64,000 nt of DNA from Candidatus Woesebacteria bacterium (GTDB taxonomy: Bacteria > Patescibacteriota > Microgenomatia > UBA1400 > UBA12108), in contig JAGOVG010000001.1 of assembly GCA_018060845.1 (NCBI GenBank), forward strand, positions 15,222 through 79,221, given 5' to 3'. The position numbers and the translations under genes were made by a program. The notes beneath the pieces were generated by a model. It was given only the letters and a program-made list of their open reading frames with translations, ran no database searches and had not been told where the DNA came from. This document shows, piece after piece, positions 2,541 to 23,222 of this stretch. Numbering within the stretch: position 1 is the first letter of the stretch; each line of letters starts with the position of its first letter.

Positions 2541-4184
2541 TTAATTATCAATAATAATTGGGATGACCAAAGGATTTTTGCCGTACTCTTCGAGAAAAAG
2601 TCGACTCACCTCTTTGGCGATCTTGTCTTTACTATACACCTTATCTCGATGAGAATCCTCTGCACGAAGCGCGGAACGGAGCGAGTTCTTAAATCGAGAC
2701 AGAACATCAGGTTCGATATGAGTGATTATCCCCTTGGGGATAAAGTCGACTTCGAGGGCGTTACCTGATCCAGTTACGACCGTAATCACCACCCCTTCTT
2801 GGAACATAGCCTGACGATCGGCGATCGGTTTGTCGCTCCTAGCAATCATGCCTGACTCGACATAGACTGTGCGCAGCGGGATTGGATCGCCCAGGTGAAC
2901 GATACCACCTGGCTCAATAACGAGCGGTTGGTTTTCGCTAGCTAAGATATGGTCCGGCGCGATCCCCATCTCACGAGCTAACTTGCCAAACTGCACGGCA
3001 TGCCGATGTGTACCACCAGTACCCATGACATACTTTGGTTTGGTAAAGGCTATCAACATCTTTATTTCGCTGGAGCTAGCGTGGCCTGAGACGTGGAGGT
3101 CGTCGGCGATGTCGCTATAGCTGACGCGCAGACCTTTGATGCTGAGCATGTCGATTAACCTATACACATTACTCTCGTTGCCGGGGATTGGATCGGCAGA
3201 AAAGATGACCTTGTCGCCTGAATCGAGCTTGATCATTTTATGATCCCCTACTGCGATCTTCTCTAGACTGCTACCGAGCTGACCTTGGCTACCGGCGATA
3301 ATGAGACATTGTTCATCCCTTGGTATATCTTTCATTTTGCGCTTATCAACAATCAGTCGTGGCGGGATTTTGAGAAATCCGAGTTCGGCGGCCACTTTGA
3401 CGTTTTTTTCGATACTGTAGCCGACAAAAGCAACTTTGCGGTTGTGCCGACGCGCGACCCAAAGAGCCTGCTGGATACGACTGATATTACTACTCATGGT
3501 AGTGACAATGACGCGGCCATTACAATCTCTAAACTCTCGCTCAAAAGACTCTTCAACACTCGCTTCGGAGAGTGAGTACCCTGGCTTCTCGGATCTTAGA
3601 CAGTCTGAGAGGAGGAGTGTTACCCCCTCCGCGCCAGCTCTTGTCATACTAGAGACATCCGGTAGCTCTTGGCCAACGGGAGTCCAGTCAAACTTAAAGT
3701 CTGAACCATGGTAGACATTGCCATGAGGAGTTTTGATGATTAGATGTTTGGTGTCGGGGACAGAGTGAGTGACAGGGATCATTTTGACTTCAAAAACACC
3801 GAGCTGGATCGGCTGGCGGTCACCGACTACGTTAATCATCTTAGGGTCGATACCGTAGTCTTTGAACTTTTCGCGCAAAAATCCAGCAGTTAACTTGCTA
3901 GCATAAATCGGGATCTGTCCACCGAGCTGAGGGATGACAAAGGGGAAGCCGCCGATATGGTCTTCGTGACCGTGAGTCACGACAAAGCCACGGATCCTAC
4001 TGATCTTGTCTTTGAGATAGGTAATATCAGGAATTGTTAAATCTACGCCTGGGACCCCTTCTTCGGGGAAGCCCATACCACAGTCGACGATAAAGATATC
4101 GGACTCGGATTCATAGACATACATATTGTCGTGAACATTGGGCATCCCACCGAGTGGGATCATTTTGATTGGAGAGTTAAGCAT
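2541..4184 (-). CDS. rnj: Ribonuclease J (metallo-beta-lactamase/beta-CASP)
   Basis: HGHEDHIGG motif; the N-terminus (KMIPLGGMPNVHDNMYVYESESDIFIVDCGMGFP) is typical of RNase J. Confidence 0.88.
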   Translation of the reverse strand: MLNSPIKMIPLGGMPNVHDNMYVYESESDIFIVDCGMGFPEEGVPGVDLTIPDITYLKDKISRIRGFVVTHGHEDHIGGFPFVIPQLGGQIPIYASKLTAGFLREKFKDYGIDPKMINVVGDRQPIQLGVFEVKMIPVTHSVPDTKHLIIKTPHGNVYHGSDFKFDWTPVGQELPDVSSMTRAGAEGVTLLLSDCLRSEKPGYSLSEASVEESFEREFRDCNGRVIVTTMSSNISRIQQALWVARRHNRKVAFVGYSIEKNVKVAAELGFLKIPPRLIVDKRKMKDIPRDEQCLIIAGSQGQLGSSLEKIAVGDHKMIKLDSGDKVIFSADPIPGNESNVYRLIDMLSIKGLRVSYSDIADDLHVSGHASSSEIKMLIAFTKPKYVMGTGGTHRHAVQFGKLAREMGIAPDHILASENQPLVIEPGGIVHLGDPIPLRTVYVESGMIARSDKPIADRQAMFQEGVVITVVTGSGNALEVDFIPKGIITHIEPDVLSRFKNSLRSALRAEDSHRDKVYSKDKIAKEVSRLFLEEYGKNPLVIPIIIDN

Positions 4185-10230: not shown

Positions 10231-10497
10231 TTAATAAACCTGGTTGTGAGTGCCTACATCATAAAAAATTAAGATCCCGTCCTTTTCACCATATACGACT
10301 CTGTAATCTCCTGTAATACTAAATGCTCTCTTGCCAATTTTTGTGCCTGTTAACGCGTGATCTCGAATCAGAGGATCTTTAGGATTAGTTTGGAAAAGCT
10401 TGAGACGCTCGGCAAATTTTTTGGATAGACTAGAGCTTGGCAAGATTCTTTTCTTGAAGGATTTCTCAAAATATTTAGAAAATTTAATTTTCTTCAT
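10231..10497 (-). CDS. Type II toxin of the RelE/ParE superfamily, YafQ-like mRNA interferase
   Basis: C-terminus RDHALTGTKIGKRAFSITGDYRVVYGEKDGILIFYDVGTHNQVY matches the YafQ/RelE core (H.L.G....R..H.....L.Y......L...GTH). Confidence 0.78.
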   Translation of the reverse strand: MKKIKFSKYFEKSFKKRILPSSSLSKKFAERLKLFQTNPKDPLIRDHALTGTKIGKRAFSITGDYRVVYGEKDGILIFYDVGTHNQVY

Positions 10498-10840
10498 ACC
10501 CCAATTGCTTCATAAGATCGTCCACACCGGTTGCTGATTTAAAATTTTTACCTTTGGCTAAATCCTGATCCATCTTGTTATAACGATTAATTGCATCTTT
10601 GGAGAGTTTAACGGTGGATGGCTCAGAGTAGACATCGACACGTAGCGTGCCAGAGGAGAAGCGATGCATAATGACCCTCATCGCCTCTTGCAGACTAGAG
10701 AATCCCTGACTTAGCGCCATTTGGTGGGCGCTATCTCTTAGATCTGTGCTTACCGGTATTTGAACAACTGTTCTACTCATATGCATACAATTGTAATGTT
10801 TTGGTATGCGGTTGTCAATATATCGAGAGTTATCCTGCAC
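10484..10840 (-). CDS. RelB/DinJ-type antitoxin (ribbon-helix-helix), partner of the YafQ-like toxin
   Basis: Its stop overlaps the toxin start by 14 nt. RHH-like segment SRTVVQIPVSTDLRDSAHQMALSQGFSSLQEAMRVIMHRF. The true start is probably the internal MHMSRT at about 10786. Confidence 0.62.
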   Translation of the reverse strand: MQDNSRYIDNRIPKHYNCMHMSRTVVQIPVSTDLRDSAHQMALSQGFSSLQEAMRVIMHRFSSGTLRVDVYSEPSTVKLSKDAINRYNKMDQDLAKGKNFKSATGVDDLMKQLGYEEN

Positions 10841-18921: not shown

Positions 18922-19116
18922 CAGTCAATAGTCGTTTCTTGAAACTACAGTTACTGGAATGTGAAAAGTGCAAATATGAATAATAAATTAACTGCAGGTG
19001 AACTATTTGAGTAAGTGGAACTTGCGATTGTGGAAGTAGCTGTAGCTGCTAACTTTAATATTTAATGCGTCATACGTACAGTCGTGTGACACATAGCCTA
19101 AATCAGGAGAAAAAGG

Positions 19117-19692
19117 CTAGCTTCCTGAGTATTGGCAGGTGAAAATTCTTCTTGTAGCGACAATAGAGCTATACCAGTCGTTATCAACTTCTCTTGGTGC
19201 AGGAGTCCATGATTGAGAGTTTACGAGGTCCCACTTTCTTCCGTATTTACCAGAGAATGCGTGTCTTGTGCCTGGCTCGTCCGCAAATACCGTTAACATG
19301 AATAGAGCTCCGTGAACAAGCGAAGGAGAGATATGTTCCAGAAAAGCCTCTAAACTGCTAATAGCTATTAGGTAGTCTTTGGATATTATTGCATGTACGG
19401 GAGTTTTAATCTCTGCATCAAAAATGCTTTTTCTAACTAAGTTCATGTTTGATTTTGCGGGAGTAAGCTCTGTAAGTGAAAATGGAGAAGCGTCGACTGC
19501 AGTAAAAACAAAATTTCCTAATTCATCTACTTTTTTCAAAAGAGAACCTGTACCTGCTCCTACCTCCAAGACATGAGGCACTTCGTTCCGAAACCGCGCC
19601 AATGTGCGTTTTGCGAATGTCTCTACATGAGGCACAAAAGTGGGTAAGATAGCACCCCTATATTGATAAGCAAGGTCATTATATTTTGTCAT
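19117..19692 (-). CDS. Class I SAM-dependent methyltransferase
   Basis: Motif I VLEVGAGTGSL and a post-I acidic residue (TAVDAS). Confidence 0.72.
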   Translation of the reverse strand: MTKYNDLAYQYRGAILPTFVPHVETFAKRTLARFRNEVPHVLEVGAGTGSLLKKVDELGNFVFTAVDASPFSLTELTPAKSNMNLVRKSIFDAEIKTPVHAIISKDYLIAISSLEAFLEHISPSLVHGALFMLTVFADEPGTRHAFSGKYGRKWDLVNSQSWTPAPREVDNDWYSSIVATRRIFTCQYSGS

Positions 19693-19745: not shown

Positions 19746-20204
19746 CTAGACTTTCCTGATCTTTTCGGCGTACTTAAGCCTCTCGACAGGGTCTGCAAGT
19801 TGTTTATCATGCATGTTTTGGTGGAGATCATCATGGTCGTAGCGAGGAAAGATGTGGAGATGATAATGGAAAGCGTGTTGGCCCCCAGCTGGCTCGTTGT
19901 TTTGTAGAAGTGTTATCCCATCACAGCCATACGCTTTTTTCATGGTAATCGAGATTTTTTTGGCAATCGCCAAAATGCGTGAGGCAACGTCAGTGGGTAG
20001 GTCGTAGATATTTTCATAATGTTCGTTTGGGACAACAATTACGTGTCCAGGATTATTTTTGATCCAAAAGGAATTGATAAAGGCGGTCACTGTCTCGTCG
20101 ATATAGACAATATCTTGGAGCCTGAGCAGTGTCCCATCACTCTCTACCCCGTTTACTCCTAGGCAGATGGGACAGGCGTAATCTGTGTCGGCGTGGTTGT
20201 GCAT
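19746..20204 (-). CDS. HIT-family (histidine triad) hydrolase
   Basis: HYHLHIFPR triad; N-terminal CPIC zinc motif. Confidence 0.85.
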   Translation of the reverse strand: MHNHADTDYACPICLGVNGVESDGTLLRLQDIVYIDETVTAFINSFWIKNNPGHVIVVPNEHYENIYDLPTDVASRILAIAKKISITMKKAYGCDGITLLQNNEPAGGQHAFHYHLHIFPRYDHDDLHQNMHDKQLADPVERLKYAEKIRKV

Positions 20205-20208
20205 AAGA
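20166..20208. repeat. Direct repeat A, the native 5' end/start region of the HIT gene
   Basis: gatgggacaggcgtaatctgtgtcggcgtggttgtgcataaga. It recurs at 22781-22823 (about 87% identity) and as a partial copy at 21261-21304. Confidence 0.7.
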
Positions 20209-20212
20209 ATAT

Positions 20213-20518
20213 TTACCGTCCGATAATTGGCTCACCGATATATCCACCTCTAATATCTGTCTGAAATAACCATCCAATAATACCAAATGCTTCGGATGGA
20301 AATGTAGAATGAAATTCTTTGCCGTTAATAAGCCCGTTCAGGACCATGCCTGTTAGAACAAGCACCTTCTCATCTATATAAACAACTACTTCTTGTCCAG
20401 GTAGCGCTTCGATTATATCGTTGAGCTTAATAACTCCATGAGAAACCATTCCGCGGAGATCCCCCGAGCGATCAAACCTATATTCCGCAACAGACAAACT
20501 TGTTCCTCTTATAGACAT
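20213..20518 (-). CDS. Hypothetical protein (in cassette 1)
   Basis: ORF only. Confidence 0.35.
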   Translation of the reverse strand: MSIRGTSLSVAEYRFDRSGDLRGMVSHGVIKLNDIIEALPGQEVVVYIDEKVLVLTGMVLNGLINGKEFHSTFPSEAFGIIGWLFQTDIRGGYIGEPIIGR

Positions 20519-20576: not shown

Positions 20577-21196
20577 TCATTTTATTCCGATAGCAATTGC
20601 TCTGAGTAGAGGTTCCTCGTACCAATCATCATCTGCCTTACTAGGCCACCATAAGAGTAGTTCGTCGTCGAATAATATCCCTGAACGCGATGCAGCCGTT
20701 CTTATTTGATCAAATGTTGTATGTGTGTATTTTTGGTTTGGGGGTGTTTTTTCATTAGGTCCAACAATACTTGGAATCGCGTTAAATACACACATAATTA
20801 TTCCAGGTGAACGTAAAACCCGACTACAGCTCGAGAAGAAAGTTCCCTTATTGGGTAAATGCTCGAGAACATCTTTAATATGTATTATGTCAAAGCTACT
20901 TACAGAGAGTTGTGAGTCTTCGAGTGTAGAGTAAATTTTAGGGGATGTAGTCATGCGCATAGATGCTGGCGAAGGATCGAGGACTGTTACATGAAAACCT
21001 TCTTCTGAAAGGCCTTGGCATAGATGCCGTTGCCAGAGCCAATATCCAGTAATGAGGGAGACTCTACTGAGAGTATCTGCCCAGCTCTCTCAACCAATGC
21101 GCTTATTACTGCATGATATGTTCCCACTGTTTGTGGTGCTTTTTCGTAGCTATGTAGATTGCCTTTTTCGCTATATTCAATATAACTTGTCATCAC
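20577..21196 (-). pseudogene. Class I SAM methyltransferase split into two ORFs by a frameshift
   Basis: ORF 20987-21196 carries motif I (LDIGSGNGIYA). ORF 20577-20960, in another frame, carries the C-terminal part (DIIHIKDVLEHLP). Confidence 0.6.
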
Positions 21197-21260
21197 GAAA
21201 TTTTAACAATATTATGTCAAAAATCATGTTATAGGACTACGTTAATAGCATTTTGCTGTC

Positions 21261-21304
21261 AATGGCGAGATTGGCGGAATTGGTCTTGGCGTGGTTGTGC
21301 ATAA
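21261..21304. repeat. Direct repeat B, partial copy of the HIT 5' end
   Basis: ttggcgtggttgtgcataa is identical to the core of repeat A. Read on the minus strand it gives a remnant MHNHA... reading frame. Confidence 0.5.
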
Positions 21305-21362
21305 CCTTGTTCGATTATAGCATTTTGTTATAATTAACCGAATAAAATACGTACGTCGTAAA

Positions 21363-21926
21363 TTGTGGTATAAAGAAAGTGATATGAGTAATAAACATAA
21401 GTTAAGCACAAGAGACTACATCTTATATCTCTTAAACAAGATAGAACTTGCCAAAGTTGGAAAGATCAGACTTAACAAACTCGCATTTTTTGTTGAGTTT
21501 GGGTACATATATAAGACTGGTAAACAGTTGTCGGAAACAGAATACGCTGGAATTAACCTAGGTCCTGTTATTAACGACTACCGCAAGATCCTAGCACAGA
21601 TGGAGAAAGATGGTGATGTGAAGATGGAAGGCGATAGGATCGTACCGTTGAAAAATTCGAACTTAATACCAGATGAAGTTAGGGTTGTGATTGATCCGCT
21701 GATTGCACGATTTGACGCTCAGCCAGATCGGCTGCTGGTAAGCATGTCCCATGCCACCGATGCTTACAAAATAACAACTATAGACGAAAAAGTTATGGGC
21801 AAGATAATCGATAAATCACTAGCACCACTTGAGACTGCTTTCTTCGATGAAAAAACTATAGTGGAAGACTTACAAGATCTGCCAAGTATCAATAGAAATA
21901 AGTTGGTTCCGTATGAGTTTGGATGA
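21363..21926 (+). CDS. Panacea-domain (DUF4065/SocA-like) putative antitoxin
   Basis: KIRLNKLAFFVEFGY matches the Panacea domain core (LnKLLYfad). Overlaps the downstream toxin-like gene by 14 nt. Confidence 0.68.
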   Translation: MWYKESDMSNKHKLSTRDYILYLLNKIELAKVGKIRLNKLAFFVEFGYIYKTGKQLSETEYAGINLGPVINDYRKILAQMEKDGDVKMEGDRIVPLKNSNLIPDEVRVVIDPLIARFDAQPDRLLVSMSHATDAYKITTIDEKVMGKIIDKSLAPLETAFFDEKTIVEDLQDLPSINRNKLVPYEFG

Positions 21927-22230
21927 TGCGTATCGAGTCTTAACTGATGACAAGTTTAATAAATGGATCAAGAAAAATTTGCCGACACAGCTGAAGAAAG
22001 TATTAGATAAAAAGATCGCGTATTTAGCATCTAACCCACAACATCCTAGCCTGAATACAAAGAAGTATGGTGTTAGTCAACAAACACTAAAGCAGTCCCA
22101 AGTGGATGAAATCTGGGAGTTTCGTATTAACATGAACTTTAGATGTGTCTATTATGTAGTGCACTCTGAGAAAACAATTATCCTGGCATTTGTGGGCAAC
22201 CACGAAGATGTGAAAGTTCGTTTTGAGTAG
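21913..22230 (+). CDS. RelE/ParE-superfamily-like toxin partnered with the Panacea antitoxin
   Basis: C-terminus EIWEFRINMNFRCVYYVVHSEKTIILAFVGNHEDV follows the RelE/ParE pattern (lwElR...yRiiY.v....i.il.vg.H.d). Confidence 0.6.
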   Translation: MSLDDAYRVLTDDKFNKWIKKNLPTQLKKVLDKKIAYLASNPQHPSLNTKKYGVSQQTLKQSQVDEIWEFRINMNFRCVYYVVHSEKTIILAFVGNHEDVKVRFE

Positions 22231-22249
22231 CTTGTGGTAGTATGCGATT

Positions 22250-22768
22250 ATGCAAAAAATACTAATTACCGGCATGGCAGGATCAGGAAAATCAACTGTA
22301 TGCGTTGAGTTAAAACGCAGGGGCTATAATAGCTATCCGATTGAAGACATAGATGGAATGTTTAATATTTATCATAAAGGTACTCGGACATTTTTTGAAG
22401 GCTATAGCAACCTTAATCCGGATGATATAGAAAATGCTGAATGGCTTTGTAACACCAATAAGTTACTGGAACTCATACGTGCCCAAAAGAGTGAGGTTGG
22501 ATTCTACTGTGGGGTCTCGTCAGACATGAACGAGCTATTTCCTTACTTTGATAAAGTATTAGTTCTTAAAGCTAGCGCAAATACGCTTAACGAGAGATTA
22601 ACGAATAGAGAGGGTACTGACGATATAGGTAATAACCAATCTGGTAGAGATATCATTTTGAAGAGGAAGGAACTCTGGGAAAAACAAATGGAGGAAAAGG
22701 GGGCAATATTTATCGACGCCAACAGTTCATTGGAAAAAGTCGTTGAAGATGTGTTAAGAAATATTTAG
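22250..22768 (+). CDS. Small P-loop NTPase/kinase-like protein
   Basis: Walker A ITGMAGSGKST. Size and layout fit the nucleoside/shikimate/zeta-like kinase fold. Last gene of cassette 2. Confidence 0.55.
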   Translation: MQKILITGMAGSGKSTVCVELKRRGYNSYPIEDIDGMFNIYHKGTRTFFEGYSNLNPDDIENAEWLCNTNKLLELIRAQKSEVGFYCGVSSDMNELFPYFDKVLVLKASANTLNERLTNREGTDDIGNNQSGRDIILKRKELWEKQMEEKGAIFIDANSSLEKVVEDVLRNI

Positions 22769-22780
22769 AAATCCGAGGGA

Positions 22781-22823
22781 GATGGGACAGGTGTAGTCTG
22801 TGTCTGAGTGGTTGTGTATAAGA
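22781..22823. repeat. Direct repeat C, HIT 5' end copy with ATG mutated to ATA
   Basis: gatgggacaggtgtagtctgtgtctgagtggttgtgtataaga. On the minus strand it reads IHNHSDTDYTCPISLG, compared with the native MHNHADTDYACPICLG. Confidence 0.7.
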
Positions 22824-22871: not shown

Positions 22872-23195
22872 ATGGCAGATGTAGAAATTCTTCATAAGTA
22901 CGGGATAGTTATGGGAGACGTTACATACGACCCAATAAACCGCTATGCACACCTCGGCCGGTTAATTGTGAACCCTGTAATCCAAAGACGTAACGGAGTT
23001 GGAACTCTTCTTCATAAAATGTTTGTTCAAGAAGCTCTTACGTGGGGCAATATCGCTATTGTTACTTTTCTTGATCCAGACAAAAAGAGTGACATGGAAT
23101 CGACTCGAATTTTTCTCGAAAAGTTAAAATATACGTTGTTTGAATACCAAGAGAAACAAATTTATCGAAAATTTATTGATTGGTCATCCGAATAA
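22872..23195 (+). CDS. Small GNAT-like N-acetyltransferase
   Basis: Motif A-like RRNGVGTLL. Confidence 0.5.
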   Translation: MADVEILHKYGIVMGDVTYDPINRYAHLGRLIVNPVIQRRNGVGTLLHKMFVQEALTWGNIAIVTFLDPDKKSDMESTRIFLEKLKYTLFEYQEKQIYRKFIDWSSE

Positions 23196-23222
23196 AAAGC
23201 CCCCTTGCGGGGGCTTTTATAC
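23194..23222. terminator. Bidirectional Rho-independent terminator between convergent genes (GNAT and dnaK)
   Basis: AAAAAGCCCCC-ttgc-GGGGGCTTTTAT; perfect 7-bp GC stem flanked by A-tract and T-tract. Confidence 0.75.

Follow-up and report, generated by a model that had tools for sequence, protein, structure and literature searches.

The window analysed here is a stretch of 64,000 nucleotides (nt) from the Candidatus Woesebacteria contig JAGOVG010000001.1, and the locus of interest comprises three consecutive open reading frames (ORFs) on its forward (+) strand, encoding an antitoxin, a toxin and a kinase. An earlier reading of the sequence alone, referred to below as the original prediction, took these for a three-gene module in which a Panacea-domain antitoxin is paired with a RelE/ParE-like toxin and followed by a Walker-A kinase-like, perhaps zeta-like, third component, all inside a repeat-bounded cassette. 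The three ORFs are present as described. The first (ORF A, panA) runs from an ATG at 21384 to 21926 and encodes 180 amino acids (aa), position 21363 being an upstream alternative TTG start. The second (ORF B, panT; 21913–22230, +, 105 aa) overlaps panA by 14 nt, and the third (ORF C, the kinase; 22250–22768, +, 172 aa) follows after a spacer of 19 nt. As many homologues were found for all three, we regard them as real genes.

The assignment of ORF A as a Panacea (DUF4065) antitoxin was borne out. PanA scores 31.9 bits against the Pfam Panacea model PF13274, above the gathering score of 25.7, and matches phrog_1281 at 1.4e-12. Translated from the ATG, it matches along its whole length, at 100% identity, a protein from a metagenome-assembled genome, entered at NCBI as ‘DUF4065 domain-containing protein [Candidatus Woesebacteria bacterium]’. 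PF13274 is present in all of the PanA homologues (26/26), which range from 180 to 196 aa in length. A family alignment of 24 members (A5) resolves a Panacea core (residues ∼30–128) and a conserved block (118–150), followed by a tail made up of a variable acidic linker (151–165) and a conserved C-terminal motif, LPxxxRxxLxxY (166–177). Neither PanA nor the toxin has a match in PADLOC.

ORF B is identical to ‘hypothetical protein KBD69_00195’ of Candidatus Woesebacteria at NCBI and, judged by its predicted structure and by profile comparison, is a divergent RelE/YoeB-fold toxin; the family members are 104–108 aa long. The AlphaFold model, built with 16 homologues and with a predicted local distance difference test score (pLDDT) of 80.8, has the RelE layout, namely a first strand (residues 8–11), two helices (13–22 and 25–40), a three-stranded antiparallel sheet (66–71, 76–83 and 88–96) and a C-terminal helix (97–104), with an extra short helix at 56–62. 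The top 30 Foldseek matches of this model in the PDB are all RelE, YoeB, YafQ, HigB or ParE toxins, led by S. aureus YoeB (7v6w), the archaeal RelE 1wmi, HP0892, T. thermophilus RelE and YafQ. The Foldseek probability is 1.0 to YoeB, RelE, YafQ and HigB, with target-normalised template modelling (TM) scores of 0.7–0.82, at sequence identities to solved structures of 14–23%. A broad family profile (A2), compared with solved structures, matched YoeB (7v5y, E 1.7e-5) and RelE3 (0.0099), and the toxin itself matches phrog_1213, ‘RelE-like toxin’, at 3.3e-5. When the toxin family profile was run over 1.8 billion representatives, 109 proteins were found; the domains seen among 61 sampled remote relatives were ParE_toxin (19), ParE_like (12), HigB (10), YafQ (7) and YoeB (4).

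Two residues, R77 and H97, are invariant in the toxin family, and profile A2 aligns both with the Arg and His of the YoeB HRV...SH motif, which we take to be the catalytic Arg65 and His83 of E. coli YoeB. On the basis of the modelled fold and these aligned residues, the predicted activity of the toxin is most likely that of an mRNA interferase.

The kinase carries the Walker A motif that had been noted earlier (GMAGSGKST), together with the lid arginines and fold of a P-loop kinase. It scores 45 bits against AAA_18, above threshold, and marginally matches dNK. Its structural model has a pLDDT of 94.7, and the Foldseek neighbours are dephospho-CoA, adenylate, shikimate and nucleoside kinases, including deoxyadenosine kinase. 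ORF C thus has the predicted character of a generic small-molecule or nucleotide kinase. It can be compared with AAA_18, dNK and COG1936-like small P-loop kinases (hCINAP/Fap7, dephospho-CoA kinase and deoxynucleoside kinase), but the identity to the top five structural matches is at most 21% and no specific family can be assigned. The suggestion of a zeta-like component fell away: the kinase has no match to Zeta_toxin (PF06414), its score of 18.2 against AAA_33 is below the threshold of 27, and zeta toxins are absent from its structural neighbours. Weak PADLOC matches to ‘VakA’ (1e-5) and mad8 are treated as generic P-loop similarity, since a literature search for VakA gave nothing relevant. 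Several close homologues of the kinase begin at Met9 in public gene calls (164 aa; position 22274 of the window rather than 22250). The family alignment favours the 172-aa start (MQKILITG), and starting at Met9 would remove the first beta strand.

The relationship between the three genes was then judged from their contexts in other genomes. Every available context of the toxin homologues, together with a genome scan, gave 14 distinct loci besides the window, all from the candidate phyla radiation (CPR), the sources being Blackburnbacteria, Saccharibacteria, Andersenbacteria, Sungiibacteriota, Moraniibacteriota, Nealsonbacteria and unclassified Patescibacteria. At 14 of the 14, the toxin gene is immediately preceded by a PanA homologue, with an overlap of 14–29 nt, and each of the 16 toxin homologues adjoins a panA gene. 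Several CPR phyla share the pair together with its overlap. The flanking genes are not conserved; those downstream vary from locus to locus (VIT1, Methyltransf_21, Pur_DNA_glyco, DUF5678, SpoU, ArsR and TrmB), and a homologue of the kinase follows the pair at none of the 12 toxin loci with at least 500 nt of downstream sequence. From the other side, 34 kinase loci were collected, using a closer kinase alignment (A4) for the metagenome scan; upstream sequence of 900 nt or more was available for 22. Neither tblastn nor hidden Markov model searches detected a PanA or RelE-superfamily ORF at any of the 34, and these loci share no conserved neighbour gene. The original prediction had named two outcomes that would tell against it, a kinase found alone elsewhere and a 105-aa protein without a toxin fold. 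The first is what the 34 loci show, whereas the second was not seen, the protein having a YoeB/RelE fold.

At one locus, from Candidatus Andersenbacteria (L018; DATDYZ010000013.1), an AAA_33 P-loop ORF at 2856–3452 (30.2 bits, with a weak Zeta_toxin score of 18.4 bits) overlaps the start of the local panA by 8 nt, on its upstream side. This is the sole P-loop neighbour among the ∼14 PanAT loci, and its family differs from that of the window kinase.

Two relatives of the window are particularly informative, as both are without the antitoxin–toxin pair but have an intact kinase. These are L010 (GCA_031972135.1, kinase 84% identical) and L053, a short ENA metagenome contig (kinase 87% identical). 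Gene order in L010 is as in the window, namely HIT, methyltransferase, kinase, HIT 5′ fragment and dnaK-grpE-hrcA, and L053 matches the window order within its reach of 1.5 kb, from HIT through to the HIT fragment 3′ of the kinase. In both, homology with the window starts within the last 17–27 nt of the toxin gene (...GTGCGTTT(T)GAGTAG), and the remnant codons agree with the C-terminal consensus of the toxin family. A terminal toxin remnant of 17–27 nt is therefore clear in L010 and L053. In L053 it is abutted by a partial HIT fragment (813–836; 0/500 shuffles), the counterpart of the copy that lies 5′ of panA in the window. An additional, internal toxin remnant in L010 receives modest support from local alignment with a shuffle control (14/500 shuffles); global alignment with cheap gaps over-fits when used to look for PanAT remnants in this genome. 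The simplest reading of these sequences is that an ancestor shared by the window, L010 and L053 had the pair beside the kinase, and that the pair was deleted afterwards. The ratio of non-synonymous to synonymous substitution rates (dN/dS) for the kinase is 0.07–0.10 in all pairwise comparisons, a value that indicates purifying selection on the kinase in L010 and L053.

The reading that we favour, with a probability of about 0.8, is that the locus is a bicistronic type II toxin–antitoxin module of the PanAT kind in Candidatus Woesebacteria, and that the kinase is an independent neighbour and not a third component. The name PanAT denotes systems in which Panacea/DUF4065 antitoxins are found with toxins (Kurata et al. 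2022, PMC8832971; Ernits et al. 2023, PMC10440598). Under this reading, panA and panT would be translationally coupled and PanA would bind the toxin directly, as complexes of PanA proteins with their cognate toxins have been reported (PMC8832971). The likely contact would be the C-terminal tail, with its acidic linker and LPxxxRxxLxxY motif. We favour the tail because some published PanAs neutralise through C-terminal extensions instead of the Panacea core (PMC10440598). Once freed, the toxin would be expected to arrest growth by ribosome-dependent mRNA cleavage, in the manner of RelE and YoeB, a proposal that takes its support from the alignment of the invariant Arg77 and His97 with Arg65 and His83 of YoeB. 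The kinase would be a separate, older, standalone gene that the pair came to adjoin in an ancestor of this Woesebacteria clade, and would take no part in toxicity or neutralisation.

Several observations weigh against this reading. The toxin falls below the thresholds of Pfam ParE_toxin (18.1 vs 23), Pfam ParE-like_toxin (17.4 vs 28) and TIGR02385 (RelE_StbE; 20.6 vs 27.9). When its single sequence was searched against the PDB, no solved structure was matched, and the close-family profile (A1) returned only spurious matches to the PARP9 macrodomain (E 0.03), which is why the broader profile A2 was required. By sequence thresholds, then, the RelE/ParE signature originally ascribed to the 105-aa protein does not hold, whereas by fold and profile it does. 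Lys50 of the toxin occupies the position of YoeB Glu46, and because of this replacement the catalytic mechanism is not readable from the residues. No DNA-binding domain was detected in PanA, leaving autoregulation without an explanation. Finally, the adjacency of kinase and pair in the ancestor of at least three genomes, together with their probable co-transcription, means that the two may have a functional link specific to this lineage.

A further point on the same side is that the toxin of the same two-gene PanAT could be a ParE-type DNA gyrase poison instead of an mRNA endonuclease. The best Pfam matches of the toxin itself are ParE_toxin and ParE-like_toxin, to which 19 and 12, respectively, of the 61 remote relatives also belong; the YoeB/ParE structure 6n90 is among the fold matches; and ParE is one of the toxin domains found paired with Panacea (Kurata et al. 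2022, PMC8832971). We nonetheless consider gyrase poisoning unlikely. Every top structural neighbour of the toxin is an mRNA interferase (YoeB, archaeal and bacterial RelE, YafQ and HigB), the only significant profile matches to solved structures are YoeB and RelE3, the invariant Arg77 and His97 coincide with the YoeB catalytic residues, and the C-terminal helix of the toxin is short, at eight residues.

The proposal of a tripartite module, in which the kinase would be a functional third component, for instance by modifying the toxin or the antitoxin or as a second, zeta-like toxin, fares much worse. It can draw on the shared strand, the 19-nt gap and the lack of a terminator between toxin and kinase, on the adjacency of the three genes in the ancestor that the window shares with L010 and L053, on the different P-loop ORF that overlaps the start of panA in L018, and on the weak VakA match of the kinase in PADLOC. 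The comparative genomics points the other way: the kinase follows the pair at 0/12 PanAT loci, the pair is found at 0/34 kinase loci, and L010 and L053 lost the pair and kept the kinase. Pair and kinase are separable in both directions and the tripartite hypothesis is therefore unsupported; we regard it as highly improbable. Same-strand adjacency, a 19-nt gap and flanking repeats did not, in this case, indicate a functional trio. It is equally improbable that the pair is no more than a remnant, non-functional and decaying with the variable region that holds it, since, despite the decay products around it (a split methyltransferase, MerR remnants, HIT fragments and half a GNAT domain) and its loss from relatives, both ORFs are full length (180 aa against 180–196, and 105 aa against 104–108) and retain all the family-invariant residues and the conserved 14-nt overlap.

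The arrangement of the genes does suggest how the kinase may be expressed. A candidate extended −10 element (TGtTATAAT, 21326–21334, +) can be read from the sequence ∼50 nt 5′ of the PanA start codon; it is missing from the output of the consensus scan because the −35 hexamer is weak. The terminator scan found no terminator-like site from the toxin–kinase gap up to 23201. With this, and with a gap of only 19 nt, the kinase in this genome is probably co-transcribed with the pair by read-through from the PanAT promoter, and such co-transcription is read-through and not partnership. A 16-nt direct repeat (21240–21255, CGTTAATAGCATTTTG, and 21312–21327, CGATTATAGCATTTTG; 88% identical) brackets a degenerate HIT fragment 5′ of the candidate panA promoter. 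This repeat may serve as an operator or may belong to a rearrangement scar.

The repeats taken in the original prediction to bound a cassette are real, as none of 100 shuffles reproduces them, but they are not specific to a cassette. They are copies of the first 16–25 codons of the adjacent HIT gene, with their right edge exactly at the HIT start codon. All lie on the − strand: the true HIT 5′ end, used as the reference copy, at 20157–20208 (first 16 codons, MHNHADTDYACPICLG), a degenerate copy just 5′ of panA at 21255–21306 (62% identity over 52 nt, with an exact 14-mer, GTGGTTGTGCATAA), and a copy at 22772–22823 (87% identity) that begins 4 nt past the kinase stop codon. Such copies also occur in L010 (1943–1991 and 3320–3394) and L053 (148–196, 813–836 and 1408–1452), at two to three per locus, and the genes between them differ between genomes. 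As the copy 3′ of the kinase is also present after the kinase in the relatives without PanAT, it belongs to the kinase side and not to a three-gene cassette.

The repeats and the decay products fall in an interval, ∼18.6–23.25 kb, in which G+C is ∼0.39 as against ∼0.50, and which appears to be a variable hot spot. One might suppose that cassettes were inserted one after another exactly at the HIT start codon, that each event brought a fresh HIT 5′ end and left the present copies as scars, and that the PanAT–kinase segment is one cassette in a Woesebacteria HIT–dnaK integration hot spot; we hold this to be doubtful. In a weaker variant, PanAT may stabilise the cassette array. Scans of the window for tRNA genes and Rfam families found nothing and so gave no tRNA-type attachment site, and no recognisable integrase was found at the HIT–dnaK region. 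A search of viral contigs yielded no relative of the toxin and, for the HIT-fragment repeat, no exact match; there is nothing in favour of a phage origin. The HIT fragments could be of use as a marker of variable-region hot spots in small CPR genomes.

Set against known systems, the pair most resembles the PanA partner clusters T14 (HigB-2/YoeB/ParE-like, Methanobrevibacter) and T28 (YoeB/ParE-like, Taylorella), both experimentally untested (PMC8832971). As there, an upstream Panacea antitoxin that lacks a DNA-binding domain at its N-terminus overlaps a small toxin of RelE/ParE fold, and, as in PanAT in general, the order is antitoxin then toxin and the pair is conserved across species. Unlike the published dataset, the present loci belong to a CPR clade, which is not present in the portion of that dataset compared (PMC8832971), and the PanA C-terminal motif is specific to this clade and distinguishes it from other PanATs. 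With YefM-YoeB and RelBE the locus shares a bicistronic operon (with translational coupling here presumed), the same predicted toxin fold (target-normalised TM up to 0.82) and an Arg and a His at YoeB positions 65 and 83. It differs from them in that the antitoxin is a Panacea domain and not Phd/YefM or RelB, and in having Lys50 for Glu46. Compared with a typical RelE, the toxin is ∼15 residues longer, with the extra short helix at 56–62, and below the Pfam and TIGRFAM thresholds. The resemblance to three-component systems (paaR-paaA-parE, toxin–antitoxin–chaperone, mazEF-mazG and epsilon/zeta) is superficial and confined to layout, that is, three genes on one strand of which one is ParE/RelE-like. 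Conservation of the third gene with the pair is a feature of those systems but not of this locus, and the kinase is no zeta toxin, chaperone or regulator. Accessory third genes at PanAT loci have been seen in a small fraction of genomes and probably have no general role (PMC8832971).

The locus is thus a CPR addition to an already catalogued pairing of Panacea with RelE/ParE-like toxins, which is hereby extended to ∼15 loci in several phyla of this group. The analysis also puts a name to a family of toxins that are entered as ‘hypothetical’ at NCBI and missed at the Pfam thresholds, and it was the comparative context that split the pair from the kinase in both directions. The significance beyond annotation is small.

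The remaining observations concern neighbouring genes of the variable interval and one locus elsewhere in the window. At 18939–19053 two short pieces of a MerR-family gene (66 and 39 nt) are left, and the gene is intact in the syntenic L010 (942–1520). A 191-aa methyltransferase gene (19117–19692), which L010 does not have, lies between these remnants and HIT. The split methyltransferase consists of two ORFs on the − strand, 20987–21196 (N-terminal part) and 20577–20960 (C-terminal part), and the whole (20577–21196) probably represents a pseudogene with a frameshift. As its counterpart, the 187-aa methyltransferase encoded in L010 and L053 was considered and rejected; that protein is only 25–26% identical to another gene of the window, the one at 19117–19692. 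A 101-aa ORF adjoining the split gene (20213–20518) has no family match. Downstream of the kinase, a 107-aa ORF (22872–23213) matches only the C-terminal half of a GNAT acetyltransferase model (17.4 bits, sub-threshold) and is followed by a terminator-like hairpin at 23201–23213. This half-GNAT ORF is absent from L010, where there is instead an unrelated 149-aa ORF on the opposite strand.

The window also contains a second toxin of the RelE superfamily. An 88-aa ORF on the − strand (10231–10497) scores 39.2 bits against Pfam YafQ_toxin, above the threshold of 30, and is overlapped by 14 nt by an upstream ORF (10484–10840, −) that has no Pfam match. With the upstream ORF as the putative antitoxin gene, the two ORFs (10231–10840) are likely to form a second type II toxin–antitoxin pair.
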